DNA of 64,000 nucleotides from Candidatus Multivoradales bacterium (GCA_965212505.1 OZ243123.1:4944313-5008312); one strand, 5' to 3'; counted from the stretch's first letter, positions 10,701-64,000 are shown. Notes: generated by a model not told the origin, from the sequence alone. Program-made: numbers and translations.

Positions 10701-11138
10701 CAAGAGCCCTTCGGCTCTCAGGAAGGCGCGGCTCCCTCGCTGCGAGAGCCGCGGAAGCGCTGTGCTGTCCCATCCATCAACTTCGACGTGGAAGCGCACG
10801 GCGTGGCCGCTCCTCCAACCGTTGAGGACGATCGGTCCGGTGGCGGCCCCAGAGAGCTCGAGATGAAGCCAGTCGAGAGGCGATTCAAGTGTGTGGGACA
10901 GCGGACTGTCGGCCGAAGCGTGCTCCCACGAGACGATCAGATCGCCTCGACGAACGCCAGAATCAGCGAGGGAGGTGCCCGGCGACACACGTGTGACGAC
11001 GACGCCTTCGTCGATCCAAGGAGCTGGCGCGCGGGCGACGCTCGCGTAGACCGCCAGCGCGACGGCCGCTCCTAGAGCGGCGAGTTGCGACAGGCCGAGC
11101 CTCGGTGCTCGCCTCTCCTGCGCACTTTCAGGCCCCAT
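7668..11138 (-). CDS. TM-anchored PDZ-like + TPR repeat + CHAT (caspase-like) domain protein, 1156 aa
   Basis: N-terminal hydrophobic anchor LSQLAALGAAVALAVYASVA and a PDZ-like stretch GVVVTRVSPGTSLADSGVRRGDLIV. Long TPR array. C-terminal CHAT domain with His (HFATHVRLN) and Cys (LVVLSACGSALG) dyad and the YYWAAFQLYG end motif. Confidence 0.8.
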   Translation of the reverse strand: MGPESAQERRAPRLGLSQLAALGAAVALAVYASVARAPAPWIDEGVVVTRVSPGTSLADSGVRRGDLIVSWEHASADSPLSHTLESPLDWLHLELSGAATGPIVLNGWRSGHAVRFHVEVDGWDSTALPRLSQRGSRAFLRAEGLLRSGRVAEAAAALEEIASDERERSAARAWLYLELGRLGLEAGESERAEHAFESALAMLDSPASRALALSLEATALSESSNLGDAETTYREALTVADEEGLQLTAAHLHHELGSLALAKERLDAARADYERAIEVRSTLAPRSLALALSLRRLGVVARRQGRLEEAEGVYERAYDLAIEIAPDGDMVGALRHNRSILAVFRGDLRSAEHLARGALNHFLRLERSGWQGSLPHPRAQVLGNLAFIASRTGDLAAAGRYLSESLALNQRYEPGGRGTILNLSDKASLAHRVGDFQEAEQLLEQALVLEKQRAGETHLSALILNRLALVARSRGDSESAESHYLKALDIYEQQAPEATNWGAVATNVGTLALDRNDLERAEDYLGRALSHYERVAPGSLDISEILVRLAEIESRRGRYRAGHALLELALERAATLAPGADEHISAISARGRLERDSGSTEGALPDFERSIRLLEESAGRLAGVRQGSLRAMAAELYRDLLLGYLDTGRTAEAFDVLERFRAGSFLARIAEREAIVEQGLSVELARSRGRVSAEYDRVQSRLASLSAGSDDHQVDQLTSRLQELARERRELIEEIRRDSPRLASIRYPEPLTLDEIARSLPDRTALLAFAVFEGETIVFAWEQGRGLEVNVVDMSERSLREQVQAWRQLVQDSARPTDFAERQRLDLNRLSRKLYTQLVAPLEPVLARGERILVLPDGPLQYLPLGALLRPANPEVENSRPQYLVEWRPIHLAMSGSTYVRNARSNFPAEAPAGTQSLLVAFGDPAFSLRRDGRSPHHDLESLPYTRSEVERVAAQFPAARTLTLLGANASEERARSNTVREARVLHFATHVRLNEHRPLDSAIVLSPPRSRDDGGDNGLLQTWEIFDGLRLRSELVVLSACGSALGDDSGTDGLNGLARAFQYAGARSILASLWSVSDRITPELMEAFYRHLLAGSPKDEALRAAQLELIRRGDRAAAPYYWAAFQLYGARDPLTATENRYSPNDTRSTSPSSSG

Positions 11139-11170
11139 GCCGAGGTGTACGAGCCGCGCGCGGCCGCGGC

Positions 11171-12508
11171 TCAGTCGTCGGCCCGCCCAACCAACGCCAG
11201 CACCTCATCGAGCTCCTTGGGTACCGCCGAGCTGAGAATCTCGGGACCGTCCTCAGTAATCAGTACCGTGTCCTCGATGCGAATGTGGAGATCCTCGTCG
11301 ACGATCTCGATGATCGGTTCGACGGCGATCACCATGCCGACTTGGAACGGCAGCGAATAGTCGCCCACGTCGTGTACGGCCATGCCGACAAAATGGCCGG
11401 CGCCGTAGGCCGGCTGATCCTCGAATCCCCATTTGTCGAAGATCTCGCGATTGATGTCGCGCGTCTGCTGACGCGTGGCGCCGGGCTTCATGGCGGCGAT
11501 GATCGCCTTCTGCGCCTCGAGTGTTGCGCGGTAGGCGCGCTCCTGGAGTTCGTCGAACTCGCCCGACACCGGCCAGGTGCGTGTGATGTCCATCGTCTGG
11601 TAGGCGAACGAGGCGCCGTAGTCCATGACGATCAGCTCGCCGTTGGCGAGCTCCTTGCCGTTCGAGTTGTAGTGCCAGATGTTGACGTTTGGCCCGGAGC
11701 CGACGATCGCCGGATAGGCGGCGTGTTCCGCACCGTTTGCGAACATGTGGTGCGAGGCGACCGCCTCGAGCTCGTACTCGTAGCGCCCAGCGCCGGTGAG
11801 CTCGATCGACTTCTGAATCGCCTCGGCGCTGACGCGGCCGTTGTAGCGCAGCACCTCGATTTCGCGCGGCGTCTTGATCATCCGCTGGGCGTCGATCAAC
11901 GGGCTCACGTCGTGCAGCTCGTAGTAGGGATAGCGGAGTCGCATCTGCTCCACGCGCCAGGCGTCCTCGCTCGGTTGCGCACCCCAGGGGTTCACCATTC
12001 GGCGCGCCATGTAGATCGCCGCGTCGCCGCGCGAGTTGTCGATCACGTCGCGCTCCGACATGCGCAGGTAGAGCGGGTGACGACCGCTGGAGCGCCGGCG
12101 CCCCAGGAACTCCTCGAAGTAGTGGGAGCCCTTGATCTCCTCGAACCCCCACCGCTCGGCCGCTCCTTCCTGGTAGAGCCAGTTCCACCCGTCGCGACTC
12201 GCCTCACGTGCAGTCTGCGTCGGCAGGAAGAGCCAGGCCTGACAGCTCGTCGCGTCGATGACGGCGACTGCGTTCAGGTTCTCGTTGCCGGTCAGGTAGA
12301 AGAAGTCGTGATCCTGCCGGTAGCGGAGCCCCGCGAGTGGACTCGTGCCCGCGAAAAGGACGACCGTCGCCTCGTCGGTGATCGCCTCACAGAGCTTCGC
12401 CCGCCGTTCGGAGAACTCCTCGGGCGGGTAGTCGAAGCGGCCGGCGAGGCTCGGGGCGGCAAGCGGGACGAGACAGGCGGCGATCACGAGAAGTTTATGA
12501 ATCTGCAT
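11171..12508 (-). CDS. pepP: Secreted Xaa-Pro aminopeptidase (M24B family)
   Basis: Track ORF trimmed to ATG 12508 (GGAGGA RBS) giving signal peptide MQIHKLLVIAACLVPLAAPSLAG. M24 pita-bread fold motifs (…HGVGMAVHDVG…, …IEDTVLITEDG…). Confidence 0.8.
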   Translation of the reverse strand: MQIHKLLVIAACLVPLAAPSLAGRFDYPPEEFSERRAKLCEAITDEATVVLFAGTSPLAGLRYRQDHDFFYLTGNENLNAVAVIDATSCQAWLFLPTQTAREASRDGWNWLYQEGAAERWGFEEIKGSHYFEEFLGRRRSSGRHPLYLRMSERDVIDNSRGDAAIYMARRMVNPWGAQPSEDAWRVEQMRLRYPYYELHDVSPLIDAQRMIKTPREIEVLRYNGRVSAEAIQKSIELTGAGRYEYELEAVASHHMFANGAEHAAYPAIVGSGPNVNIWHYNSNGKELANGELIVMDYGASFAYQTMDITRTWPVSGEFDELQERAYRATLEAQKAIIAAMKPGATRQQTRDINREIFDKWGFEDQPAYGAGHFVGMAVHDVGDYSLPFQVGMVIAVEPIIEIVDEDLHIRIEDTVLITEDGPEILSSAVPKELDEVLALVGRADD

Positions 12509-48546: not shown

Positions 48547-50961
48547 GTGACAACCGCTCGTTCCCCGGTGGCGACACCGGCGACTTTGGAAGCACTCGAG
48601 TTCGGTAGCTATCTCGAGATGCTGTCCGCTATGGCGGCGACCGATCTCGGCCGGGAGCGGGTTCGGTCGACCACTTGGGCTCCGCGTCTGGAGGTGCTCG
48701 ACCGGCGGCATCGCCGTTTCCACGAGGCGGCGAGCCTGCTGGAACACCAGCGTTTGGTGCCGTCGTTCGAGGAGCCGCTCGGCGCCGTTCTCGAGTCGCT
48801 GAGCCGGGGGGACAGCGAACTCGTCGGCATCGAGCTCAACCGCCTCGCCGCCGCGCTGCGGGCCGTCGAGGGGACGCGCAAGGCGATCGGAGCGGCCGAT
48901 CCGGAGTGCCCTGAACTGGCCGCCGAATCGGAGCGTCTCGACGACCTGCGCCGGCTGGTGCGTCGAATCGAAAGCACCCTCGACCGCCGCGGGCGGGTGC
49001 GCGACGACGCCAGCGATCGCTTGATGAGTTTGGGCGGCGACGTTCGCCGTTCGCGCGAAGCGATCTACGGTGAGCTTCGTAGCTACGGCAAGAAGCACAA
49101 AGACGACCTTGCCGAGGAGACCATGCCGCTGCACGACGGCCGGGTCGTCGTGCTCCTCAAGGCCGGCTCCAAGTCGCGCGGCGGCGGACTGGTCCATCGC
49201 GGGTCGGGTACCGGGCGGAGTGTCTACTTCGAGCCGCTCGAGGTGGTCGAGGCGAACAACCGCATGCGCGAGTCGCAGCAGCGCGAGCAGGAAGAGCGTC
49301 AGCGGTTGCTGAACGATCTGGTCGACGCAGCTCGCGAGGCGGTCGAGTCGATCGCTCTCCACCTCGACTTCCTCGCCCTGCTCGACCAGCAACAGGCGCT
49401 GTGTGACTTCGCGGAGCTCTGTGAAGCGCGGTTGGTAGAGATCACGGAGCGGCACTCCTTGCGGGTGAGCGGTGGCTACCATCCGCTGCTCGACCCGAGG
49501 TTGGCTTCGTTGAGGGAACGAGCGCTCGGTCACGCCGGCCACCTCGGCGAGGTCGTGCCGCTCGAACTCGAGCTCCTACCCGAACGGCGTGCGCTCGTCG
49601 TTACCGGACCGAACGCCGGCGGCAAGACGGCTGCGCTCAAGACGCTCGGGTTGATGGCGCTGGCGGCTCAGGTGGGCCTACCGTTTCCGGCCGCGGCCGG
49701 AAGTCGCTCACCGTGGCTCGAGTCGGTCGTCGCGACCGTTGGCGACGAGCAGGATCTGCTCGAAGACCGCTCGACCTTCAGCGGTCGTCTACTGCGGCTC
49801 CGAGAAGCCTGGGATGCGGCGGGTCCCGACAGCCTTCTGCTCCTCGATGAGCTCGGCTCGGGAACTGATCCGGAAGAGGGGAGCGCGCTCTCGATCGCGC
49901 TCCTCGAGGGGCTGCTCGAGCGGGGGTCGATGGCGATGATCACGACCCATCTGACGCCTCTCGCGGCGGCGGCGCTCGAGCAAGACGGAGCCACCTGCGC
50001 CGCGATGCAGTTCGACGCCTCGAGCCACAGACCCACGTTCGAGCTCCTGCCCGGCGCGCCCGCCGGTAGCGAGGCGATCTCTCTCGGTCGCCGGCTCGGC
50101 CTGCCGACAGAGTGGCTCGACCGAGCCGACAATCTGCTGGGCAGCGGCCATCGAGACCTTCGGCGCTTGCTTGCCGAAGTCGAGTCGATTCGTGCCGACC
50201 TCGAGCAGCGCAGCCACGATCTTGCCGACCGGAGCGCCGAGCTCGAAAACCGGAAGGAAGAGACCGAGCTCCTGCAGGCGTCTCTCGCGGAGGAGCGGGT
50301 CAAGGTGGGTGCGCGCGCTCGCAAGGACCTGGAGGCATTCCGACGCCAGGTGACCGAAGAGCTGCGAGAAGAGGTCGCGCGCATTCGAGAGGAGATGGAA
50401 GCGGGGCGCAAGCGTGGGCTCGCGGAGGCGGCGGTCGAGCGTGTCTTCGAAGAGGCGCCGGAGGTGGAGACCGGACAGGAGCCCGGGCCGGACGCAACCC
50501 TCGGCGACCGGGTCGAGCACCGTTCTCTCGGTTGGAAGGGGGTCGTCGAACGTGTCGACCGTGGCAAGGCCGAGGTCAACGTTCATGGCAAACGCATGCG
50601 TTGCGCCCTCGACGACCTGGAGGTCCTCGAGGAGGGTGCCGGCGCCGCGGTCTCGATGGATCGTGCGAAGTCGACCCCGACAGCGACCCCGACACCGAGA
50701 CCGGACGTCGATGCGGTGAGCTCCGAACTCAACCTGATCGGACATCGGGTCGAGGAGGCGCTGGAGCAGCTCGACAGCTACCTCGATCGGGCCCTCCTGT
50801 CGGCGGACGGCGAGGTGCGCATCATTCACGGGCACGGCACCGGGCGGCTGAGAAAGGCGATCCGGGAGCACCTGCGGAATCATCCGGCTGTGGCGGCTGT
50901 TCGGCCGGGTCGTGGCAATGAGGGCGGCGACGGTGCCACGATCGTCTCGCTCCGCGGGTAG
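48547..50961 (+). CDS. mutS2: Endonuclease MutS2 (MutS domain + C-terminal Smr)
   Basis: GTG start. Walker A GPNAGGKT. …LLLLDELGSGTDP…. C-terminal Smr (LNLIGHRVEEAL…GEVRIIHGHGTGRLR). Confidence 0.85.
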   Translation: MTTARSPVATPATLEALEFGSYLEMLSAMAATDLGRERVRSTTWAPRLEVLDRRHRRFHEAASLLEHQRLVPSFEEPLGAVLESLSRGDSELVGIELNRLAAALRAVEGTRKAIGAADPECPELAAESERLDDLRRLVRRIESTLDRRGRVRDDASDRLMSLGGDVRRSREAIYGELRSYGKKHKDDLAEETMPLHDGRVVVLLKAGSKSRGGGLVHRGSGTGRSVYFEPLEVVEANNRMRESQQREQEERQRLLNDLVDAAREAVESIALHLDFLALLDQQQALCDFAELCEARLVEITERHSLRVSGGYHPLLDPRLASLRERALGHAGHLGEVVPLELELLPERRALVVTGPNAGGKTAALKTLGLMALAAQVGLPFPAAAGSRSPWLESVVATVGDEQDLLEDRSTFSGRLLRLREAWDAAGPDSLLLLDELGSGTDPEEGSALSIALLEGLLERGSMAMITTHLTPLAAAALEQDGATCAAMQFDASSHRPTFELLPGAPAGSEAISLGRRLGLPTEWLDRADNLLGSGHRDLRRLLAEVESIRADLEQRSHDLADRSAELENRKEETELLQASLAEERVKVGARARKDLEAFRRQVTEELREEVARIREEMEAGRKRGLAEAAVERVFEEAPEVETGQEPGPDATLGDRVEHRSLGWKGVVERVDRGKAEVNVHGKRMRCALDDLEVLEEGAGAAVSMDRAKSTPTATPTPRPDVDAVSSELNLIGHRVEEALEQLDSYLDRALLSADGEVRIIHGHGTGRLRKAIREHLRNHPAVAAVRPGRGNEGGDGATIVSLRG

Positions 50962-50979
50962 AGTCGAGAGACGAGGCCC

Positions 50980-52761
50980 GTGGCGTTACGCAACATCCAA
51001 CTCAACCCGCAGCTCGTCCAAGCTGTCCGAGACGCTGTCGACATCGTCGACATCGCGTCGGAGTACACCAAGCTCACGAAGACCGGCAGGCGCTACAAGG
51101 GCCTCTGTCCGCTCCACAAGGAGAAGACGCCGTCGTTTAGTGTCGACGTCGACCAGGGCCTCTACTACTGCTTTGGCTGCGGGCAGGGCGGCGATGGGAT
51201 CAAACTCCATCAGGCGCTCTCCGGGGACGACTTCCCCGGCGCGATCGAAGCGCTCGCGCGGCGCTACGGCATTCCGCTTCCCGAACCGGTCGAGACACGT
51301 AGCGGTAAGACCGAGCCCGACCTCGAGCGGGTGCTCGAGGAGGCGGAGGGCTACTTCAAGGCGCAACTACAAAATGCGCCGCGGGTTCTCGACTACCTGT
51401 CGCGACGCCAGATTCCGACCGAGTTGATCGAGCGCTTTGGTCTCGGCTACGCCCCCGAGGGGTGGCGCAATCTGGTGGGCGCTCTCGGCACCCGTTTCCC
51501 GGCTCGCGAGCTCGAGGCCGCCGGTCTGTCTGCGCGCTCGGAGAAGGCTCCCGACAAGCCGTACGATCGATTCCGACATCGCCTCATGTTTCCGATTCGC
51601 AATGCCGCCGGCCGCCTGGTCGGATTTGGCGGTCGAGCGCTCGGCGACGACAAGGCGAAGTACGTCAATACAGCGGAGACCTCGCGCTTCCAGAAGAGCT
51701 ATCTTCTGTACGGCCTCGATCTGGCAAAGCGAGCGATTCGCGATGAACGGAAGGCCTTCCTGGTCGAAGGCTACTTCGACGTCATCGGCGCCGCCGCCGC
51801 GGGCGTCGAGACGAGCGTTGCCGGGATGGGCACTGCGCTCACTCCGGAGCAGGCGCGTCTGCTCAAGCGCTTCGCCGACGAGGTGTTGATCGGTTATGAC
51901 GGTGACCCGGCGGGAGAGACGGCGTTTCGGCGCTCCCTGCCCATCCTGCTCAGCGAGGGCATGACGGTGCGTCGGCCCGAGTTGCCCGAAGGGGAGGACC
52001 CGGACTCCCTCCGCCGAAAGCAGGGCGACGCCGCTCTGCTCGATCGACTCGAGAGCGCCGAGGACGCCGTGATGCTCGAGATCCGTCGCCAGGTGCCCGC
52101 CAACGTGCGGAGTGAACCGAGCGAGCAGGCGCGTGCGGCGCGCAGCGTCGCCGAGCTGCTGAAGCCGATTCCGGACGGCATTTTGCGCTACAGCTACGCT
52201 CGCGTAGCCGCGGATCGACTCGGCGTTCCGGTCGATCTGCTCTGGCGACGGGTGGGTGGAGACCGCGGCGGTGCGGTTCGTGAGGAGGCTCCTCAGCCGC
52301 GAGATGTCGTTCGCACGTTGGAGGAGCGTCTCCTCCAACTTCTGCTGGCGAGCGGCGTGGAATTGCCTCTGCCCGAGGAGATGCCTTCCGAGGAGGCGTT
52401 TTTAGATCAGGATTTGAGGAATATTTTCTCGATCTTTCTTGCTCTCTATTCTGAGGCCGGCGGTAGCCGGCCGGAGGTCAAGCAGGTGCTGGCGAAGGTC
52501 GGAACCGAGGGGAAGGCTGTTGACCAGCTAGCTAGACTTCTGTTAGAAGATCCTGTTGCCGCGGCGAAGGGCGAGCTTCAGCAGTCCCTCGCGAGACTGA
52601 AGCGCCGATGGCAGCAAAAGCGGTTGCGGGAGTTGTCGACAGAAATCAGCCGAGCCCAAAGCCTCGGAGACAACCAGAGTCTCGAGAGGCTCCTGCACGA
52701 GAAGAACACCATCAGCCGTGAACTACACGGCCGTCAAAACGGGTCTGAAGAGCGAGCCTAG
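50980..52761 (+). CDS. dnaG: DNA primase
   Basis: GTG start. Zinc-binding [13 protein letters not shown]…[17 protein letters not shown] region EGYFDVIGA. Confidence 0.85.
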
Positions 52762-52811
52762 TTCGCCTTGGGATCGAAGGTCAGAACCGGAATCGGCGTA
52801 GGAGAGTTCTG

Positions 52812-54524
<1,713 letters not shown>

Positions 54525-54553
54525 GGGTCGCTGGGCGCGACGAGACTCGAGTC

Positions 54554-55393
54554 GTGCCCAGCGTCCACGAGCACGTCTCCCTCGGCCAACTCCTCGTTCG
54601 CGAGGAGGTCGAGGGGCTGCGCTTCGAGCGCTCGTTGCATCGGGCGGGACGAGTGCTGCCACCTCATGCTCACCAACACGCCAACGTCCTGATGGTCGTG
54701 CGGGGCGGCCTGCTCCAGACGATCGGGCGTGACGCTCACTCGATCGGAGCCGGCGGGGTTGTAGCCAAAGGCCCCGGCGTTGTGCACTCGGATCACTTCG
54801 GCGGCCGCCCCACCGAGCTCTTCGGCGTCGAGGTGTTCCCGGAGCGACTGGAGAGCCTGGCGACGAAGGGCGATCCATTCCGGCGGCCGCTGGTTGTTCA
54901 CGAATCGGGCGTCACCGCGCTCGTTCGGGCGCTCCTCGACGAGTTCGCTACTCCGGATCAGGCGTCACAGCTGGCGCTCGAGGCGCTGGCTCTCGAGCTC
55001 GTCTCGGCGCTCAGAACGCGCCAGAGCCACCTCTCGGGCGATCGTCCGCCGACCTGGCTGCGCGCGGTTCGCGATCGGCTCGACGAGCAGGTCGCCGAGC
55101 GGCATGACTTGACGACGCTGGCCGATGCGGCGGGGGTACATCCGGCGCACCTGGCCCGAGCGTTCAAGCGTTGGCTCGGCCGGACGCCCGGTGGATACCT
55201 GCGCGAGAGGCGACTCGAAGAGGCGGCGCGTCTGCTCGCGACGACGGATCGAGAGATCGTCGACATCGCGCTCGACCTCGGCTTCTACGACCAGGCCCAC
55301 TTCACGCGGGTGTTTCGGCGTCCGCATGGCCTAACGCCCGCGCGCTTTCGGCGCGTCTGTCGCCGCGGCCCACTCAGCTGCGGCAGTAGCTGA
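54554..55393 (+). CDS. AraC-family transcriptional regulator (cupin-like N-domain + HTH)
   Basis: GTG start. C-terminal AraC HTH (…LADAAGVHPAHLARAFKRWLGRTPGGYL…, …DIALDLGFYDQAHFTRVFRR…). Confidence 0.75.
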   Translation: MPSVHEHVSLGQLLVREEVEGLRFERSLHRAGRVLPPHAHQHANVLMVVRGGLLQTIGRDAHSIGAGGVVAKGPGVVHSDHFGGRPTELFGVEVFPERLESLATKGDPFRRPLVVHESGVTALVRALLDEFATPDQASQLALEALALELVSALRTRQSHLSGDRPPTWLRAVRDRLDEQVAERHDLTTLADAAGVHPAHLARAFKRWLGRTPGGYLRERRLEEAARLLATTDREIVDIALDLGFYDQAHFTRVFRRPHGLTPARFRRVCRRGPLSCGSS

Positions 55394-56549
55394 GCGCGGT
55401 CTGAGCGAAGGCGTCGGAGCACGCGACCACCGAGTCCAGCTCGACCCACTCTTCGTCCGCGTGTGGACCGGCGCCGGTCGGACCGAAGACGACCGTGTCG
55501 ATTCCAGCAGCTCGAAGGAAGGCTGCGTCGGTCCAGAAGGGGACGCCGACGATCGACGGCTCCGCGCCGGTGGCCTCCGCCGAGGCCGCGCCGAGAGTCA
55601 ACGCAACGTCGCTCTGGGGCATCGCCTCGAAGGCGGGTCGCTCGAGCTTGTGCTCGAGATCGATCTGTCGGTCGGGGCGCCGCTCGCGGGCGCGTTCGAT
55701 GATGGCGGAGATCGCGACCAGGACCTCGTCTCGCGCTGGGCCGGGGATGGTGCGGAGCTCGATCTGTCCGCGACATCGCTCGGCGTAGATCGACGGTCCG
55801 TCGCCGCCCTCGAGCACCCCGAGGTGCAGGCTCATGGGTCCGAGAAGTGGGTGGGCTCGACCTTTCAAGAGCTGTCCCTGCAGCTCTGCCACCGGCCCGA
55901 GCGCACTCACCATGCCGAGGTTTGCATCGACACCTCGCGAGTAGTCGCTGCCGTGGTACGCGACCCCGTGGGTCGTGACCTCGAGCCAGAGGAAGCCCTT
56001 GTGGGCCAGGCACAGCCCCATGTCGGTCGGCTCGGCGACGATTGCACCGTCCGCCCGGTAGTGCTCGAGCACCTCCTGGGTGCCGAGGCTGCGGTCCTCT
56101 TCGTCTGCGACGAGGGCGACCACCAGGTCTCCCTCCAATCGGCCTGACCCGGTGGCGATCGCGTGGGCCGCGCCGAGGCAGGCGGCGACTCCGCCCTTCA
56201 TGTCATACGTGCCGCGCCCGTACATGCGGCCGCTCTCGGTGCGGGGTTCGAAAGGCGACTCCATGCGGCCCGGACCGACGGTGTCGATGTGGCCGTTGAG
56301 CATCAGGGATCGGCCACCGCCACTGCCTCGCAGCACACCCACGACACTGGGCCGCCCGGGCGTCGTCTCCAGGACGGTCGTTTCCATGCCCATCCCCTCG
56401 AGCATCTCGCGCCCGAGACGCGCGATTTCCCGCTCGCCCCGACCCGGTTCTCCCGAGGCGTAGGGGAAGAACGGATTGACGGAGTCGGTGGCGACGAGCC
56501 GCTCGAGTGCCTCGAGCGTCCATTCGGAATCGACGTGACGCGGTCTCAT
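55374..56549 (-). CDS. M20-family metallopeptidase (ArgE/DapE/CPG2-like deacylase)
   Basis: Trimmed to ATG 56549. …LMLNGHIDTVGPG… and …GRGTYDMKGG… M20 metal-binding motifs. The 3' end overlaps the AraC gene by 20 nt. Confidence 0.75.
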   Translation of the reverse strand: MRPRHVDSEWTLEALERLVATDSVNPFFPYASGEPGRGEREIARLGREMLEGMGMETTVLETTPGRPSVVGVLRGSGGGRSLMLNGHIDTVGPGRMESPFEPRTESGRMYGRGTYDMKGGVAACLGAAHAIATGSGRLEGDLVVALVADEEDRSLGTQEVLEHYRADGAIVAEPTDMGLCLAHKGFLWLEVTTHGVAYHGSDYSRGVDANLGMVSALGPVAELQGQLLKGRAHPLLGPMSLHLGVLEGGDGPSIYAERCRGQIELRTIPGPARDEVLVAISAIIERARERRPDRQIDLEHKLERPAFEAMPQSDVALTLGAASAEATGAEPSIVGVPFWTDAAFLRAAGIDTVVFGPTGAGPHADEEWVELDSVVACSDAFAQTALSYCRS

Positions 56550-56626
56550 GACGAGGAGTCTGGCTCGTCGGCGAGCGCGCGTCTTGCACGAATCGAACAT
56601 CGACCGATCGGTCGATGCGATTCGAG

Positions 56627-57112
56627 TCACTCGTCTTCGGTTGCTGCGGTCTCAGTGGATTGGACGCCACGCAGATACGCGAGCAGGTCCGCCAACTTCC
56701 TCTGCACGTCGTCTTCGGTCTGGCCGTCTTCGACCTGGAAGACGGCGCCCCAGATCGGCATGTCCCGACCGTGCAGCGGCACGCTGACCTCCCGACCGTC
56801 GATCGACTCGAGCACCCGTTCGGTTGGGAAGAGACCGTCGTTGCTGACCCGTAGCCGGGTGAGATCGGCAGGCGCGACCTTCAGGAACTTGGCGACGCTG
56901 CCGTCGCCCTTCGCACTCGTGCCGTGGCACGAGCGGCAATAGCGCTGGTAAAGGCCCCGGCCGACTCCGAAGCTGCCATCGATTTCGGCCGCTGAGACGG
57001 CCTCGGTGGGCACCTTCCCACTAGGGTCGGTTTCGGCGGCTGTCAGGGCGGCCGTGCCCAACGTTACGGCGAGCAGTCCGGCGAGAGCGAGAATCCAGAC
57101 CCTCTCTGTCAT
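56627..57112 (-). CDS. Secreted mono-haem c-type cytochrome
   Basis: Signal peptide MTERVWILALAGLLAVTLGTAALTA. Haem-binding CRSCH (CxxCH). Confidence 0.65.
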   Translation of the reverse strand: MTERVWILALAGLLAVTLGTAALTAAETDPSGKVPTEAVSAAEIDGSFGVGRGLYQRYCRSCHGTSAKGDGSVAKFLKVAPADLTRLRVSNDGLFPTERVLESIDGREVSVPLHGRDMPIWGAVFQVEDGQTEDDVQRKLADLLAYLRGVQSTETAATEDE

Positions 57113-57270
57113 CGTCGACCTCCTTGGCCATCAGCATACGTGCGTGCTGCGGGGCCACGACACGTCCGCGAAGGCTGGTGACGGCCCTCCCGAGGGGTGG
57201 GCGAAGAGCGATTGACAAAGACGAAACCCATCCCTAACATTCTCTGTTCGGCCCCTTGGGGCCGCACTGA

Positions 57271-57345
57271 TCCTGGGTAGCTCAGTGGTAGAGCGATCGG
57301 CTGTTAACCGATTGGTCGGGGGTTCAAATCCCTCCCCAGGAGCCA
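57271..57345 (+). tRNA. tRNA-Asn (anticodon GTT), CCA encoded
   Basis: TCCTGGGTAGCTCAGTGGTAGAGCGATCGGCTGTTAACCGATTGGTCGGGGGTTCAAATCCCTCCCCAGGAGCCA. Anticodon loop CTGTTAA. T-loop TTCAAAT. Confidence 0.85.
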
Positions 57346-57356
57346 TCGAAGATTCG

Positions 57357-57384
57357 AGCCGGCTTTCGAGCCGGCTCTTTCGTT
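57357..57384 (+). terminator. Rho-independent terminator after tRNA-Asn
   Basis: AGCCGGCT-ttcg-AGCCGGCT palindromic hairpin followed by CTTTCGTT. Confidence 0.45.
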
Positions 57385-57415
57385 AGCGGTGAGATTGAAG
57401 AGGCTCGGGGGTGCC

Positions 57416-59314
57416 CTAGGGCTCCCCTTTTGCGCGCTCGCTGCGACGCTTCTCGAACCAGGCGCGAGGCCGAACCAGCTTCCAGTCGCGTTCGGTGCCA
57501 TCGAGTTCGACAGCGCTCGACAGCGGGCCGAGGCGCAAGAAGAGAAGCCCGTCGCGATCTCCTCGGGAGATCTCGGCGTCGCCCAGGATCTCGAGCCGCC
57601 CTCCACGAATGTCGATCGACTGCAGCCCGAGACTGCGTGGCCGGGTGCTCACGCGAGCCTTGGCGACGACGTCTTTGACCGTCAAGACCCGGTCGATCAT
57701 CTGGACGAGTCTCCTCTTGCTGGCCACGAGTGCAACCACGGGGCCCGAGTCCCGCATCGTCGCGCGGAGGTCGGCCTGGGCCCACGCGGTCTTGTGCTGC
57801 CGGAGTTCTCCGTCGTCGATCACAATTTTCATCCACCACCCACTTCGAGGAGGGCGGTCGGCGTGCTCGCGCACCTCGACGTCTGTGAGTTCTATGGACG
57901 AGCCGGAGAGGTCGTAGCGTCGTTCGTCGAAGGCGGCGTCTTTGAGTTGCGCGCGAAACGCGAGGGCGCCTTCCAGATGAACGTCGCCCATCTGAGCCGA
58001 GATCCGATCCGCCGAAAGTTGGAGCTCGCCGTTTGCCGAGCGGTCCGCAACGGACGCCTCGAACCGCCCAGAGAGGAAGGCCGGTCCCCCGCCCAGCACG
58101 ACACTCTCGGCGCTGATGAGAAAGCCGTTGTAGTTGGCGAAATCATCTACGCGAGCGTCGTTGAGCTCCAAGACGGCCTGAAGGTCGGTGAAGGGAGCAT
58201 CGTGGAGCGCGAGTCGCCGACTCGAGGCGGTGAGTTGGAATCGAGCCTCTGCCGCGTGCGGCTCGTCGGCGCCCAGACGTCGCAGCTCGACCTCCTGGAG
58301 GTCGATCGCCATCGTGAGTAGATCGTCGCTCTCCACCAGGGCCTGCGCACTCCCTTTGCCGGCGACTCGGTTACCCGCGATGTCGAGGGCGACGCGCTCC
58401 GCGTCGATGTTCAGGAACGTGGGCGGGCGGATCTCACCGCGCTCGAGCTGCAGCTCTCCCTCGAGCTTTCCCGACGCGACCGCGTTGAGCCACTCGGCGC
58501 CGTGCAGGAACGGATCGAGGGCTGGGAGCTCGGCGGCGAGCGCCTTGGCTCTTGCGCTGCCGCTCATCTGCCTGAGTACCTCGGGCGCGGACATGCCGCG
58601 GGGCTCGAACGGTGCCAACTGAACCGAAAGGTCGAGGTCTAACTCTCGGGCCGCGGTCTCACCGGCGACGATCAGCTCGGCGCCCCGCGCGGTGAGCGCG
58701 CTCCCCTCGAGCTCGAGCTCGCGCCCCACCGTGAAGTCGAAGTCGGCTGAGAGGTCCCCGGCTCTGTCGACGAGCACCGAATCGATCCAAATCTGCCGCC
58801 CGCTTCGGAGCTTCAGGTCGAGCAGCTCGACCCGCCAGGGGCGCCCGCCGTCGGCCCTTTCGTACAGCTCTTCCGGAGGCGGCGCCGGCGGGTTGTCCAG
58901 ACCTGGAATCTCGGGCGCCCAACGCTTCAGCGCCTCGAGATCGGGAGGGTCGTCTTCGTCGAAGGCGTCGAGCCGTCGTCGGAGGCGGAAGTCGAGACCC
59001 GTGCCCCTCACCCCGGCGCTCTGGAAGCGCTTGAGAGGCAGGAGGTGAAGAGAGATCGGAACCTTTGCGCTCTCGATCTCCGCGCGCCACTGAACCTTGC
59101 GATTTTGCACTCGAATTCGAAGGCCCCGGACTTCAACGAGTCCTGGCACCCACGACCAGGCTCGCCGCCACTCGACCTCGAGCTTCTCAGGCTTGCGGTT
59201 GATGGTCCGCGGGCCGAGGTCGGTCGCCAGGAACAGGTTTGCGGCGAGAAGGTAGACCGACCAGAGCACCGCCACGACAGCGGTGAGCTGGAACAGCGTG
59301 CGGCGACGCGACAT
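57416..59314 (-). CDS. N-terminally anchored large hypothetical protein (AsmA-like topology)
   Basis: N-terminal TM (LFQLTAVVAVLWSVYLLAANLFLA) followed by about 600 aa of soluble, beta-rich-looking sequence. Family not recognised with certainty. Confidence 0.5.
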   Translation of the reverse strand: MSRRRTLFQLTAVVAVLWSVYLLAANLFLATDLGPRTINRKPEKLEVEWRRAWSWVPGLVEVRGLRIRVQNRKVQWRAEIESAKVPISLHLLPLKRFQSAGVRGTGLDFRLRRRLDAFDEDDPPDLEALKRWAPEIPGLDNPPAPPPEELYERADGGRPWRVELLDLKLRSGRQIWIDSVLVDRAGDLSADFDFTVGRELELEGSALTARGAELIVAGETAARELDLDLSVQLAPFEPRGMSAPEVLRQMSGSARAKALAAELPALDPFLHGAEWLNAVASGKLEGELQLERGEIRPPTFLNIDAERVALDIAGNRVAGKGSAQALVESDDLLTMAIDLQEVELRRLGADEPHAAEARFQLTASSRRLALHDAPFTDLQAVLELNDARVDDFANYNGFLISAESVVLGGGPAFLSGRFEASVADRSANGELQLSADRISAQMGDVHLEGALAFRAQLKDAAFDERRYDLSGSSIELTDVEVREHADRPPRSGWWMKIVIDDGELRQHKTAWAQADLRATMRDSGPVVALVASKRRLVQMIDRVLTVKDVVAKARVSTRPRSLGLQSIDIRGGRLEILGDAEISRGDRDGLLFLRLGPLSSAVELDGTERDWKLVRPRAWFEKRRSERAKGEP

Positions 59315-59476
59315 CAGGGAAATCCGGTGCTGTGGCGGTGGTTACGGACGTCGGCGCACGGTGAACACAGGCCGCACCTTATCTTCATGGTTGGCGACAG
59401 AGTAGCTCGCGACCGGTGTGCTAGCTTGCCGCTGCAGCGATCTCGCGCCAAGAGCGCCCGACGAGGAGTTCATCGC

Positions 59477-59803
59477 ATGTCACTAGCTGAGAAGGACTGT
59501 ATCCCCTGCAAGGGCGGCGTCCCGCCCCTCAAAGGCGAAGAGCTCACGACTCTCGATGCGCAGCTCGGCAACGGTTGGCAGGTTGTGGATGAGCATCACC
59601 TCGTCAAGGAGTTCCGCTTCTCGAACTTCCAAGAGGCGATGGATTTCACGGTGAAGGTTGGCGAGCTCGCGGAAGAGGTGAATCACCACCCCGAGATCTG
59701 TGTCACGTGGGGTCGGGCCACCATCACGCTCTGGACGCACAAGATCGACGGTCTCACCGAGAGCGACTTCGTCTGGGCCGCCAAGGCCGACCAGCTCGTC
59801 TGA
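59477..59803 (+). CDS. phhB: Pterin-4-alpha-carbinolamine dehydratase
   Basis: Trimmed to ATG 59477 (GAGGAG RBS). …FRFSNFQEAMDFTVKVGELAEEVNHHPEICVTWGRATITLWTHKIDGLTESD matches the PCD/DCoH signature [EDKH]-x(3)-H-[HN]-P. Confidence 0.8.
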   Translation: MSLAEKDCIPCKGGVPPLKGEELTTLDAQLGNGWQVVDEHHLVKEFRFSNFQEAMDFTVKVGELAEEVNHHPEICVTWGRATITLWTHKIDGLTESDFVWAAKADQLV

Positions 59804-59877
59804 CCTCCTGGGCCGCCCCTCAACCGGCTGCCGCTGAGGGTAAAGCTCTCGTGCCGCGCTACTTATAGCCGGCCGTC

Positions 59878-59930
59878 GATTTGTTTGAGGGTCGCCGCGA
59901 CAGCGACTACACTCAGCCCTCATACAAATC
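59878..59930. promoter_or_regulatory. 14-nt inverted repeat (GATTTGTTTGAGGG…CCCTCATACAAATC) with 25-nt spacer in the leader of the nuclease gene
   Basis: Read directly. One mismatch between arms. Lies 60 nt upstream of the ATG at 59991. Could be an RNA hairpin or a protein operator. Confidence 0.3.
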
Positions 59931-59990
59931 AGGTGTGGGTGCGAGAACCGTCGTCGACCGGTGAGCGGCCGGCGTGAGGGAGGAGGTCAG

Positions 59991-62900
59991 ATGTTTAGGG
60001 ATTGGAATCGCGTTGTAGGGCGTGCTGTCTTCGGGACGCTCGGAATTTGGATGGCGATGACCGGTGCGGCCTGGGCGGCCGGCGTCGGAGATGTCGTCAT
60101 CAACGAGATCATTCAGAACCCGAGCGCCGTCGGCGATAGCGACGGCGAGTGGTTCGAAGTGACAAACACGAGCGGTGTGGCCATCGATATCAACGGCTGG
60201 ACCATTCAAGACAACGACACCGACAGCCACGTGATCACCAACGGGGGTCCGCTCATGGTTCCCTCGAGTGGCTTCCTGGTGCTAGCAGACAACGGCGACG
60301 CGGGCGCCAACGGTGGCGTGACCGTCGACTATGTCTACAGCGGCATCACACTCGCCAACTCGAGCGACGAGCTGGTGTTGCTCGACAACGTGCTGGCCGA
60401 GATCGATCGCGTCGAGTGGGACGACGGTGCAACCTTCCCCGATCCGAACGGCGCGACCATGGCGTTGAGTGATCCGGCTCTCGACAACAACGTCGGCACC
60501 AACTGGTGCGAGGGTGCGACGCCGTTTGGCGACGGCGACCTCGGCACTCCCGGTGCGGCCAACGACTGCGGTGGCGGTCCGGTCGAGATCGTGATCAACG
60601 AGATCATCCAGAACCCGGACGCCGTCAGCGATGGCAACGGTGAGTGGTTCGAGGTCTTCAATCCGGGCGCTTCGGACGTCGACATCGAAGGTTGGACGAT
60701 TCAGGACAACGACTCCGACAGCCACGTGATCGCCAACGGCGGACCGCTCCTGGTTCCGGCCGGTGGGTTCGCGGTGCTGGGCGTCGACGGCGATCCGGGC
60801 ACCAACGGTGGTGTCACGGTCGACTACGTCTTCTCGAGCGTCTTCCTGAGCAATAGCTCCGACGAGTTGGTACTGCTCGATGGCGACCTCAACGAGATGG
60901 ACCGCGTCGAGTGGGACGACGGCGCAACCTTCCCCGACCCGACCGGCGCCTCGATGGCGTTGATCGATCCGGCGCTCGACAACAATGTCGGTGCCAACTG
61001 GTGCGAGGCGATCTCGCCCTTTGGCGACGGCGACCTCGGGACTCCTGGAGCTGCCAACGACTGTGGCGGCGATCCGGTCGAAGAGATCGTGATCAACGAG
61101 ATCGTGCAGAACCCTGACGCGGTTGGCGACGCTGACGGCGAGTGGTTCGAGGTCCACAACCCCGGAGCGACGGACGTCGACATCGATGGTTGGACCATCG
61201 AAGACAACGGCTCCGATAGCCACGTGATCACCAACGGTGGCCCGCTGCTGGTTGCGGCGGGCGGCTTCCTGGTGCTCGCCGACAATGGCGACGCGGGCCT
61301 CAACGGTGGGGTCACGGTCGACTACGTCTACTCAGGGATCACCCTGGCCAACGGAGACGACGAGTTGGTGCTCCTCGACGGAGACCTCAACGAGATCGAT
61401 CGCGTCGAGTACGACGGCGGGCCGAACTTCCCGGATCCGACCGGCGCCTCGATGTCGCTGATCGACCCGAGTCTCGACAACAACGTCGGTACGAACTGGT
61501 GCGAAGCCTCGACGCCCTTCGGCGACGGCGACCTCGGTACGCCGGGCGCGGCCAACGACTGTGTGCTCACCGCCGGTGAGCTGGTGATCAACGAGATCGA
61601 CTACGACCAGGACGGCACCGACGCCGCCGAGTTCGTCGAGCTCAAGAACGTCGGCGCGGGTCCGGTCGATCTGACCGGCTTTGCCCTCGAGTTCGTCAAC
61701 GGCTCGAGTGTGACGGTCTACGACACCATCGCGCTGCCGTCGGTCATGCTGGCCGCGGGTGACTACTACGTGGTGTGCGCCAACGCCGCCACGGTTTTCG
61801 ACTGCGACCTCGACGACGGGCCCGACACCAACTTCATTCAAAACGGTGCACCCGACGCGGTGGCCCTGATGTTCGGCGGCTCGATTGTCGACACGGTGAG
61901 CTACGAAGGTGACGTTGCCGGCTTCGTCGAAGGCTCGGGCTCTGGGCTCGAGGACGACTCGAACGACGACAACAGCGGCATCTCCCGTTTCCCCGACGGC
62001 GTCGATACCGACATGAACAACCTCGATCTCAGCCCGCGTTGCATCACGCCGGGCGCAGCGAACTCGTCGGCCGACACGAGCTGTCCGGTACCGGGTCCGC
62101 CGCAACTGGTGATCAACGAGATCGACTACGACCAACCGAGTGGCGACACCGCGGAGTTTGTGGAGATCTTCAACGCCGGCAACGGCGACGCCGATCTCAC
62201 CGGTGTGACGCTGGAACTGGTCAACGGCAACGACAACCTGCCGTACGACACGGTCGCTCTGCCGGCAATGACGCTGGCTTCGGGTGACTACTTCGTCGTC
62301 TGCGCCGACGCCCTAGTGGTGCCGGAGTGCGACCTCGAGGGCTTCAGCTCGATCCAGAACGGTGCGCCGGATGCCGTCGCCCTGATGTTCGAGGGCGGCA
62401 TTGTCGATACGGTCAGCTACGAAGGTGACGTTGTCGGCTTCGTCGAGGGCTCGGGTGTGGGTCTCGAAGACCCCGCCAGCGAGGACAACCGCGGCATCTC
62501 CCGCGTTCCGAACGGCGTCGATACCGACATGAACAACGTCGACCTGACGCTCGTCTGCGTCACTCCGGGGCGCGCGAACAGCTCGGTGGTCACCGGCTGC
62601 GGTCCGCAGGGTCCGATCTTCGAGATCTGGGCGCTTCAGGGCAGCGGCACAGTGATCAACTTCGAGGACGAAACGGTGACCACGGTCGACAATGTGGTCA
62701 CGGCGGTCGGCCTCGACGGCTTCTTCATTCAGACGCCGGATGCACGCACGGATGGCGACGTCGACACCTCCGACGGCATCTTCGTCTTCACCGGTGGTGC
62801 ACCGACGGTCGCCGAGGGTGACCATGTCGACGTCACCGGCACCGCGGAGGAGTTCTTCGACTTCTCCGAGCTTGGCGACTTCCCGTCGGTCACGGTCACC

Positions 62901-64000
62901 AGTTCGGGCAATCCGCTGCCGGCGATCGTCACGTTCGACGCCGCGACACCGTCGCCGGATCCGACCGCGCCGAGTTGCGCGATCGAGTTCGAGTGTTACG
63001 AGGGCATGCTGGTCGAGATCATTGGCGGCTCGGTGACCGGGCCCAACCAGGGCTTCGGTACCGACCCGATCGCCGAGGTGCACATCACCGCGGCGCCCAT
63101 GCGGACCTTCCGCGAGCCGGGCATCGAGTTCCCGGGCGAGGTGGGCTTCCCGGTTTGGGACGGTAACCCCGAGGTCTTCGAGCTCGACCCAGACGCTCTC
63201 GGACTGCCGAACGACATCATCCCGGGTGGTTCGAGTTTCGACGCTCAGGGTGTGATCGGGTTCGAGTTCGGTGGCTATGAGCTCTTCCCGAAGTCGCTCA
63301 CGGTGACGCCGGCAACGGTTCCCGATCCGGTTCGTCCACGTGAGGTCGGTGAGTTCACGGTCGGTTCGCTCAACCTCTTCCGCCTGTTCGACGACGTCGA
63401 CGACCCGTCGGACGTCAATTTCTTCGGTGACACCCGCAACGACACGGTCGTCGACGCGGCCGAGTACGCGCGGCGGCGGGCGAAGTTCGCCAGCTACATC
63501 GTCGACGTACTCGACTCGCCGGACATTCTGGCGGTGCAGGAGGCTGAGAAGCTGGGGGTCCTCGAGGATCTCGCGGCCGACATCACCGCGCTCGACGCGA
63601 CGGTGGTCTATACGGCCCACCTGATCGAGGGCAACGACATCGGTACGATCGATGTCGGCTTCCTCGTGCGCGACACCGTGGTGGTTGATGCGGTCACGCA
63701 GCTCGGTCTGACCGAGACCTACATCAATCCGGTCGACGGCCAGCCGGCCGTGCTCAACGATCGGCCGCCGCTTCAGATCGACGCGCGCTGTCAGATCGAC
63801 GGCGTCGAGACCCCGGTCACCGCGATCGTGGTCCACGGCCGCTCACTGAGCGGTATCGACGACGCCGACGGTCGCGTGCGTAGGAAGCGCTTCGAGCAGG
63901 CGCAATCGATCGCGCAGAAGATGCAGGATCTGCAGGTCGCCAATCCGCTCATCAATCTGATCGTGCTCGGAGACTTCAACGGCTTCGAGTTCACCGACGG
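59991..64000 (+). CDS. ExeM/NucH-type extracellular endonuclease with five N-terminal lamin-tail domains; 3' end beyond window
   Basis: ATG 59991 with GGGAGGAGG RBS. Signal peptide MFRDWNRVVGRAVFGTLGIWMAMTGAAWA. Frame translated codon by codon and found open to position 64000 (absent from the track because no stop). Three LTD copies (VINEIIQNP…GEWFEV…GWTIQDND…) and two of a second LTD type (LVINEIDYDQ…AEFVE…). ExeM-like IFEIWALQGSG…GFFIQTP…SDGIFVF. EEP nuclease motifs VGSLNLFRLFD and ILAVQEAE. Confidence 0.75.
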   Translation, partial: MFRDWNRVVGRAVFGTLGIWMAMTGAAWAAGVGDVVINEIIQNPSAVGDSDGEWFEVTNTSGVAIDINGWTIQDNDTDSHVITNGGPLMVPSSGFLVLADNGDAGANGGVTVDYVYSGITLANSSDELVLLDNVLAEIDRVEWDDGATFPDPNGATMALSDPALDNNVGTNWCEGATPFGDGDLGTPGAANDCGGGPVEIVINEIIQNPDAVSDGNGEWFEVFNPGASDVDIEGWTIQDNDSDSHVIANGGPLLVPAGGFAVLGVDGDPGTNGGVTVDYVFSSVFLSNSSDELVLLDGDLNEMDRVEWDDGATFPDPTGASMALIDPALDNNVGANWCEAISPFGDGDLGTPGAANDCGGDPVEEIVINEIVQNPDAVGDADGEWFEVHNPGATDVDIDGWTIEDNGSDSHVITNGGPLLVAAGGFLVLADNGDAGLNGGVTVDYVYSGITLANGDDELVLLDGDLNEIDRVEYDGGPNFPDPTGASMSLIDPSLDNNVGTNWCEASTPFGDGDLGTPGAANDCVLTAGELVINEIDYDQDGTDAAEFVELKNVGAGPVDLTGFALEFVNGSSVTVYDTIALPSVMLAAGDYYVVCANAATVFDCDLDDGPDTNFIQNGAPDAVALMFGGSIVDTVSYEGDVAGFVEGSGSGLEDDSNDDNSGISRFPDGVDTDMNNLDLSPRCITPGAANSSADTSCPVPGPPQLVINEIDYDQPSGDTAEFVEIFNAGNGDADLTGVTLELVNGNDNLPYDTVALPAMTLASGDYFVVCADALVVPECDLEGFSSIQNGAPDAVALMFEGGIVDTVSYEGDVVGFVEGSGVGLEDPASEDNRGISRVPNGVDTDMNNVDLTLVCVTPGRANSSVVTGCGPQGPIFEIWALQGSGTVINFEDETVTTVDNVVTAVGLDGFFIQTPDARTDGDVDTSDGIFVFTGGAPTVAEGDHVDVTGTAEEFFDFSELGDFPSVTVTSSGNPLPAIVTFDAATPSPDPTAPSCAIEFECYEGMLVEIIGGSVTGPNQGFGTDPIAEVHITAAPMRTFREPGIEFPGEVGFPVWDGNPEVFELDPDALGLPNDIIPGGSSFDAQGVIGFEFGGYELFPKSLTVTPATVPDPVRPREVGEFTVGSLNLFRLFDDVDDPSDVNFFGDTRNDTVVDAAEYARRRAKFASYIVDVLDSPDILAVQEAEKLGVLEDLAADITALDATVVYTAHLIEGNDIGTIDVGFLVRDTVVVDAVTQLGLTETYINPVDGQPAVLNDRPPLQIDARCQIDGVETPVTAIVVHGRSLSGIDDADGRVRRKRFEQAQSIAQKMQDLQVANPLINLIVLGDFNGFEFTD
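60099..61579 (+). repeat. Three diverged tandem DNA repeats (period 495/498 bp) encoding lamin-tail domains 1-3
   Basis: Unit starts (ATCAACGAGATC…) at 60099, 60594 and 61092. About 75-85% nt identity by eye. Confidence 0.7.
61580..62629 (+). repeat. Two tandem DNA repeats (period 525 bp) encoding lamin-tail domains 4-5
   Basis: CTGGTGATCAACGAGATCGACTACGACCA at 61580 and 62105. Both units end with …TPG(A/R)ANSS. Confidence 0.7.

Follow-up and report, generated by a model that had tools for sequence, protein, structure and literature searches.

A putative extracellular nuclease of the ExeM/NucH-like type with five tandem lamin-tail domains in a Candidatus Multivoradales bacterium

A long open reading frame (ORF) at the end of a 64,000-nucleotide (nt) stretch of DNA from a Candidatus Multivoradales bacterium (GCA_965212505.1, OZ243123.1:4944313-5008312; the whole stretch is hereafter called the window) raises the question of what kind of enzyme stands behind an array of five tandem repeats, and whether that array is genuine, stable, and exceptional. 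The frame starts at ATG 59991 on the + strand, and a first-pass annotation made from the sequence alone described it as an ExeM/NucH-like secreted nuclease with five lamin-tail domains (LTDs). The core of that identification was upheld by our analysis, with secretion suggested by a signal-peptide-like N terminus. We consider it likely (at a probability of roughly 0.8) that the product leaves the cytoplasm by the Sec route and is an extracellular DNase, dependent on divalent cations, of the type that joins LTDs, OB-like barrels, and a domain of the endonuclease/exonuclease/phosphatase (EEP) superfamily, as do ExeM, Xds, NucH, and SpnA. The protein is a high-copy-LTD variant of the known LTD-OB-OB-EEP kind, and it belongs to a very large sediment family.

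The frame runs from ATG 59991 to base 64000 without a stop (1,336 codons), exactly as first described, and the window thus holds the first 87% of a 1,544-codon gene. A public protein of 1,544 amino acids (aa), here called P0001, is 100% identical over the entire query and derives from a contig of 5.12 Mb (NCBI/ENA). The first-pass annotation had called for the C terminus to be recovered and had named a stop or frameshift shortly past 64000, or a decayed EEP domain, as outcomes that would overturn it. Instead, P0001 supplies 208 further residues in which the LDH and SDH motifs and the conserved EEP residues are intact. The GC content at third codon positions (GC3) of the sense frame is 0.84, close to that of rpoD (0.87). 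Since the Pfam LTD model (PF00932) matches with 271.5 bits against a cutoff of 34.3 (E-value 6e-82), the GC3 is rpoD-like, and an identical 1,544-aa protein is on record, the reality of the gene is far beyond chance, and 59991-64000 is confirmed as part of a real, intact gene.

The Pfam LTD match falls into five separate stretches, and a hidden Markov model (HMM) specific to the family also finds five full-length units in the nuclease. Together with unit alignment, these searches delimit three units of a first type, namely A1 (aa 31-195, 60081-60575), A2 (aa 196-361, 60576-61073), and A3 (aa 362-526, 61074-61568, with its best Pfam stretch at aa 364-474), followed by two units of a second type, B1 (aa 527-701, 61569-62093, with four Cys) and B2 (aa 702-876, 62094-62618), all on the + strand. 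The modules are immunoglobulin-like lamin-tail domains in the order AAABB, which agrees with the three-plus-two arrangement and the unit sizes that had been proposed. Tandem Repeats Finder (TRF) reported the A units at 60094-61598 with a period of 495/498 nt, 3.0 copies, and 78% matches; the 525-nt period of the B pair exceeds the 500-nt limit of that program and was verified by alignment instead. In codon-level alignments, the A units (165-166 aa) are 76-78% identical pairwise at the nt level, near the bottom of the 75-85% range first estimated, and 74-76% identical at the aa level. B1 and B2 (175 aa each) share 71% of nt and 65% of aa, and identity between A and B units amounts to 28-40% of aa. 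No further LTD was found by scanning the rest of the window, nor was any C-terminal tail domain of the kind described below, and a PDB sequence search with one LTD unit returned only a spurious match to a nanobody linker.

Downstream of the array, all the landmarks that the first-pass annotation had listed for a beta-barrel region and the start of an EEP nuclease (IFEIWALQG, GFFIQTP, SDGIFVF, VGSLNLFRLFD, and ILAVQEAE) were found. The first beta-barrel (aa 877-973, 62619-62909, +) is OB3-like: positions 4-108 of the NCBIfam ExeM/NucH model NF033681 match aa 902-1010, and the barrel aligns to residues 6-82 of chain 9sf8_A of SpnA, which correspond to OB3. A second beta domain follows (aa 974-1118, 62910-63344, +), seen in an AlphaFold2 (AF2) model as strands at 134-233 (model numbering), and it is probably equivalent to OB4 of SpnA. 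The EEP nuclease domain extends over aa 1119-1445; its N-terminal two thirds (aa 1119-1336, 63345-64000, +) lie in the window, whose end cuts it, and it was delimited by PF19580, invariant alignment columns, and Foldseek. The last 208 residues of P0001 finish this domain with the motifs LDHALVS, GNADGAE, and SSDHDG and add a tail of ~100 aa. A 17-nt tandem repeat (63759-63798, 2.3 copies, score 52) also lies within the EEP coding sequence and is probably due to chance.

In an alignment of the nuclease module from 62 relatives, N1128, E1184, H1282, D1328, N1330, D1396, N1417, D1419, D1436, and H1437 are invariant, and at least 90% of the sequences keep H1397. Five of these eleven residues are encoded in the window on the + strand (N1128 at 63372, E1184 at 63540, H1282 at 63834, D1328 at 63972, and N1330 at 63978), and the other six lie past its end and were read from P0001, with an offset of +873 in the alignment numbering. 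The AF2 model of aa 874-1544 has a mean predicted local distance difference test (pLDDT) value of 91.8 and a predicted TM-score (pTM) of 0.90, and it comprises two beta-barrel domains, of which the first has five strands at a pLDDT of about 90, then an EEP domain of alpha/beta type and, at the end, a small three-helix tail. A Foldseek search of the PDB with this model returned, at probability 1.0, DNase I (target-normalised TM-score, TMt, 0.72), TDP2 (0.68-0.73), nocturnin, and Bacteroides EEP proteins. The domain exceeds the gathering cutoff of PF19580 (Exo_endo_phos_3), 27 bits, only marginally, with 28.5 bits for the part in the window and 29.0 for the full length, and relatives of the nuclease also match PF03372. 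It therefore has the gathering score, the DNase I-like four-layer alpha/beta sandwich, and the conserved residues that define the EEP superfamily.

Is the protein then an ExeM? NF033681 is matched at profile positions 4-108 and 190-542 of 546, that is, over a barrel and the EEP domain after it, with 89.2 bits for the part in the window and 113.8 bits when the full length of P0001 is scored (cutoff 300). The narrower model NF033680 (exonuc_ExeM-GG) yields 48 bits against a cutoff of 1300. A GlyGly-CTERM segment, the rhombosortase signal made up of GG, a hydrophobic helix, and a basic cluster, was searched for in P0001 and not found: the last 60 aa contain no GG, and no 19-mer of the last 150 aa exceeds a Kyte-Doolittle average of 0.88. 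Thus, of the HMM checks first suggested, PF00932 was clearly positive, the EEP domain was recovered through PF19580 at a marginal score, and NF033681 was negative at its cutoff. The label ExeM/NucH holds as a likeness and fails as a membership; judged by its domains, the protein is ExeM/Xds/NucH/SpnA-like in architecture and, by the curated criteria, lies outside ExeM/NucH. We advise the product name "LTD-containing extracellular nuclease, ExeM/NucH-like" rather than ExeM.

ExeM (Shewanella oneidensis SO_1066) and Xds (Vibrio cholerae) resemble the present protein in their parts: a signal peptide (here a signal-peptide-like N terminus), LTD on the N-terminal side, an OB-like region that activity requires, and, toward the C terminus, an EEP domain in which metal and phosphate are bound by the same set of residues. 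Both are extracellular, Mg2+/Ca2+-dependent nucleases in which the OB region and the EEP domain are needed and the LTD is not (PMC6085458, PMC6746945). They differ in having one LTD rather than five, in a length of about 870 aa rather than 1,544 aa, and in their hosts, which are Gammaproteobacteria rather than Acidobacteriota; moreover, the present protein has an extra TSP3/Cys tail of ~100 aa and, unlike ExeM and Xds, neither a GlyGly-CTERM nor a transmembrane anchor. The only sequence relatives in the PDB are 9SF8 and 9SF9, cryo-electron microscopy structures of SpnA from Streptococcus pyogenes, resolved as OB3-OB4-nuclease. SpnA shares the OB3-OB4-EEP core, with the first barrel aligned to OB3 and LGDFNGFEFT aligned to LGDFNDFEFT of SpnA, although the sequence similarity is weak and partial (E 1.5e-6). 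Catalysis by SpnA depends on its OB domains, and the enzyme needs Mg2+ to be active and Ca2+ to be stable (PMC13601614). Where the LTDs stand here, SpnA has two further OB domains, and it is anchored to the cell wall by an LPXTG motif that is lacking here. DNase I and other EEP proteins (PF03372, PF19580) have the catalytic residues in common with the present protein, as well as the fold (Foldseek probability 1.0; TMt 0.72 for DNase I of both human and bovine origin), whereas DNase I is a single domain that needs no OB modules, and sequence identity is 13-17%.

The tail that distinguishes this protein occupies aa 1446-1544 of P0001, past the end of the window. In 30 aligned tails, we found four invariant Cys, a calcium-type (TSP3-like) loop of the form DxDxDGxxDxxDxC, and the motif DTAGCSCEQII...GHxKFGCSxGxMxxWV. 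Searches of Pfam and NCBIfam gave no model that covers the tail. When modeled alone by AF2, it reached a pLDDT of 93.5, and a Foldseek search of the PDB with that model gave no match. When 1.84 billion cluster representatives were searched with a profile of the tail, 1,476 proteins matched at E<=1e-10, nearly all with the tail at the extreme C terminus. The 107 tail-bearing host proteins carry 56 Pfam families, including FG-GAP, Laminin_G_3, DUF11, Lcl_C, Kelch, subtilase, and EEP; among tail-bearing proteins, four also have a type IX secretion system (T9SS) sorting domain and one a choice-of-anchor Q domain. The tail is, in short, a promiscuous extracellular module.

The five LTDs had been called an unusually expanded array, which proved an overstatement. 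To count LTDs, we used an HMM built from 358 units of the family, as A and B HMMs built from this protein alone were too strict and missed divergent LTDs. Two samples were examined. The first comprised 70 N-terminally complete loci from species-representative genomes, picked via the nuclease module only, and contained 15 loci with no LTD, 21 with one, 11 with two, 13 with three, and 10 with four; five LTDs were reached by none of the 70. The second comprised the 120 best database matches, a sample biased toward LTD-rich proteins, with two LTDs in 18, three in 33, four in 59, five in 9, and seven in 1. Five units therefore represent the upper tail of a continuum, one above the commonest count among close relatives (four), and are no oddity. 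Unit types are mixed among relatives, as in AAAB, AAAA, BBBB, AAB, and others.

Database relatives at E<=1e-10 number 2,664, several of which are named "predicted extracellular nuclease", and their hosts include sediment Thermoanaerobaculia, Woeseiaceae, Lysobacterales, and Wenzhouxiangella. The best match in a scan of genome contigs was 83% identical and came from the Acidobacteriota metagenome-assembled genome (MAG) OFTM233. The multi-LTD proteins from sediment MAGs (P0002-P0120, annotated as "predicted extracellular nuclease" or "lamin tail domain-containing protein") share the architecture, both the A and B unit types, and 45-79% identity, and 83 of 106 of these relatives carry the tail domain. 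Most have 2-4 LTDs, whereas five are found in the present protein and in nine others. Thermoanaerobaculia and Woeseiaceae are abundant in sediment, yet their nucleases are unexplored, and the gene offers a clean, full-length example of a family with more than 2,600 relatives, in which the ExeM/Xds design is extended by LTD arrays of variable length and by a C-terminal module that is new.

The order of parts is thus a putative signal peptide, three A and two B LTDs, two OB-like barrels, the EEP domain, and a C-terminal domain of ~100 aa, and for these we propose the following mechanism. After export, the OB-like barrels would hold the DNA substrate, and its phosphodiester bonds would be cleaved at the EEP site, with Mg2+ bound by E1184 and N1128; H1282, D1328, N1330, D1396, and D1436/H1437 would serve in catalysis and phosphate binding. 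Nucleotides freed from environmental DNA could then feed the scavenging of phosphorus, nitrogen, and carbon. Among the sources of phosphorus in marine sediment, extracellular DNA (eDNA) is a major one (PMC8289736). The C-terminal domain would act as a reusable extracellular module that may tether or stabilize the enzyme.

The role of the LTD array is constrained by its charge. Each unit has 28-33 Asp and Glu against 1-3 Lys and Arg, and the 358 LTD units of relatives have a mean net charge of -22. The mature protein as a whole has 265 acidic and 44 basic residues (about -14.2 charges per 100 aa), the OB-like barrels being acidic too, as compared with a family mean of -11.4 and values of -8.5 to +1.8 for the products of neighboring genes. 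It has been proposed that LTDs fused to DNases add DNA binding at high salt, in a study whose tests did not include the LTDs themselves (PMC4486849). Deletion of the LTD from ExeM slowed the in vitro reaction and barely affected the clearance of extracellular DNA (PMC6085458), and the Xds LTD is dispensable for activity and membrane association (PMC6746945). Because the units are so extremely acidic, direct electrostatic binding of DNA by them is unlikely, and the array most likely serves as a spacer, as a cation-bridged attachment, or as a module for solubility in salt, any of which would fit better than a DNA clamp; the first-pass reading of it as a DNA/matrix-binding array thus finds no support.

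Several points weigh against an exported DNase. The NF033681 score is well under its cutoff, and the Pfam EEP score only just exceeds its own. EEP domains are also found in phosphatases and lipid phosphodiesterases. The putative signal peptide was judged by eye only, and passage across the outer membrane has no explanation. Proteins that bind DNA are seldom so acidic, and any contact with DNA would by implication be mediated by cations. Literature searches gave no experimental study of the multi-LTD nucleases of sediment MAGs. In addition, no phosphate-regulon or nucleotide-uptake genes adjoin the nuclease gene in the window, and a phosphate-regulon operon context was rejected here.

One alternative is that the LTDs and the tail fix the protein to the envelope, the biofilm matrix, or minerals, so that it remodels local eDNA for biofilm structuring or detachment rather than for nutrition. 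We regard this as unlikely. In its favor, ExeM and Xds affect biofilms and remain cell-associated, the tail occurs on adhesin-like or lectin-like proteins (SdrD_B, FG-GAP, Laminin_G_3, and Lcl_C), and the LTD number varies from 0 to 7 across orthologues, as if it were a length or avidity module. Nonetheless, the LTD of Xds is unnecessary for membrane association, no biofilm genes lie near the nuclease gene in the window, and P0001 has no known anchor signal, as scans found no LPx[TSA]G anywhere, no PEP-CTERM motif, and no hydrophobic C-terminal segment in addition to the missing GlyGly-CTERM. Moreover, attachment to a surface overlaps with, and does not exclude, an extracellular DNase. A different possibility concerns the substrate, since "nuclease" would be a misnomer if the EEP domain acted on RNA, on a phospholipid or sphingomyelin-like head group, or on an inositol or sugar phosphate. 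The superfamily is broad, the top Foldseek matches include nocturnin (an NADPH phosphatase) and TDP2 beside DNase I, the Pfam and NCBIfam scores are low, and the protein is very acidic. Yet the only family-level matches are the ExeM/NucH nucleases and SpnA, including the OB3 that those enzymes need for DNA cleavage; of the DNA enzymes, DNase I has the highest target-normalised TM-score (0.72); and the GDFN and SDH motifs match those of the nucleases. We thus hold a substrate other than DNA to be quite improbable.

We also asked whether the five-unit array could have arisen in assembly, by repeat expansion or a chimera, or whether the gene could be a decaying pseudogene. Such doubts are encouraged by short-read MAG contigs that break within LTD arrays and by a syntenic orthologue in a Thermoanaerobaculia MAG (locus L047) that has no LTD and perhaps a frameshifted N terminus. 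Against an artefact, the units differ from one another at 22-29% of bases and share exact matches of at most 20-29 nt, such that reads place uniquely; the source contig is 5.12 Mb long; and an independent metagenome contig of the Joint Genome Institute (JGI), L081, encodes a protein with 79% aa identity (P0002) and the same AAABB layout. Against a pseudogene, the frame is intact over 1,544 codons, and the ratio of nonsynonymous to synonymous divergence (dN/dS) between units is 0.22-0.33. The synonymous divergence (dS) between units is 0.70-0.82. Because the units are this old, are under purifying selection, and have only short identical runs, recent instability or assembly collapse is unlikely. 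Recent expansion, collapse, and pseudogenization were accordingly rejected, and we find an artefactual or decaying array hardly credible. The LTD units are old duplications maintained by purifying selection, and they are poor substrates for homologous recombination and easily assembled. The window and L081 are 80-83% identical at the nt level between orthologous units (a comparison restricted to identities within a type, as free end gaps render the A-versus-B values meaningless) and 79% identical in the catalytic module, so array and catalytic module have diverged equally fast from their orthologues. The earlier view of a locus prone to copy-number variation and collapse thus finds no support on short time scales, whereas between species the copy number does vary, from 0 to 7 units.

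Two side observations bear on these repeats. In L081 (8001-12575), units 2 and 3 are 86% identical to each other at the nt level, and both are nearest to unit A2 of the window (83%); this similarity points to one conversion or unit-replacement event in the sister lineage. The short-read MAG contigs L001, L006, L019, and L045 end inside LTD arrays, i.e., the repeats fragment assemblies, with no collapse here.

Going beyond the exported DNase as such, one might picture the LTD array as a polyanionic stalk, tunable by copy number (0 to 7 units, about -20 to -30 charges each), that docks the nuclease via Ca2+/Mg2+ bridges onto mineral-adsorbed or matrix-bound sediment DNA, or that keeps the enzyme soluble and active in seawater, with the tail (~1,500 clusters of unrelated secreted proteins) as an undescribed surface-tethering or dockerin-like module. 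We offer this as speculation that is rather improbable. If it were true, nucleases with such a stalk and tail would form a class of their own, that of "sediment eDNA-foraging" nucleases. The natural series of 0 to 7 LTDs can in any case serve to ask what bacterial LTDs do, a question left open by the studies of ExeM and Xds.

At the 5' end of the gene, the closest upstream in-frame stop is at 59886-59888, and a strong Shine-Dalgarno-like sequence, AGGGAGGAGG, lies at 59977-59986 (+) with a 4-nt spacer to ATG 59991. By inspection, the first 29 aa (59991-60077, +), MFRDWNRVVGRAVFGTLGIWMAMTGAAWA, followed by AG, resemble a signal peptide with a basic n-region containing three Arg, a hydrophobic core, and an AWA-A motif. 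A scan of 59300-60100 revealed neither a sigma-70-like promoter nor an intrinsic terminator. On the - strand opposite the gene, ORFs at 60282-61223, 61332-62135, and 62313-63836 had been dismissed at first pass as artefacts, and rightly so: their first codon positions have a GC content of 0.83-0.86, a mirror image of the sense GC3 (0.84), they share one mirror frame, and a Pfam search gave no match for any of them. They are shadows of a GC-rich coding strand rather than genes and should be dropped from the annotation.

Upstream, the window carries mutS2, dnaG, rpoD, and genes for an AraC-type regulator, an M20 peptidase, cytochrome c, a 632-aa membrane protein, and pterin-4a-carbinolamine dehydratase. 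The 632-aa ORF (57416-59314, -), between the cytochrome c and dehydratase genes, has an N-terminal transmembrane-like segment and no obvious family. The order mutS2-dnaG-rpoD ... dehydratase-nuclease (48547-59803 in the window) recurs in MAGs of Thermoanaerobaculia and Candidatus Multivoradales (loci L047, L005, L079, L021, L035, L033, L002, L003, and L081). Since the position after the dehydratase gene, downstream of mutS2-dnaG-rpoD, is conserved, the nuclease gene is taken to be vertically inherited at this site. Together with the identity of RpoD and DnaG to those of Thermoanaerobaculia MAG loci, this synteny points to a Thermoanaerobaculia-like acidobacterium as the source of the window. 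In L081 (1-6273), the dehydratase-nuclease pair is preceded by genes for a Porin_O_P phosphate-selective porin, two members of the sulfatase/alkaline-phosphatase superfamily, and an NMT1_3 binding protein, a set absent from the window that may constitute a phosphorus-scavenging neighborhood.

The closest syntenic orthologue is that of L047, whose RpoD and DnaG are 93% and 79% identical to those of the window and whose nuclease has neither LTDs nor a tail; even close relatives can therefore differ in their accessory domains, whose turnover is fast. In the 9197-11749 region of L047, the nuclease ORF (9983-11749) has two ORFs in other frames a short way upstream, one encoding a signal peptide (9197-9535) and one unrelated (9477-9905), an arrangement that reflects either a frameshift in the gene or an N-terminal domain of another kind.

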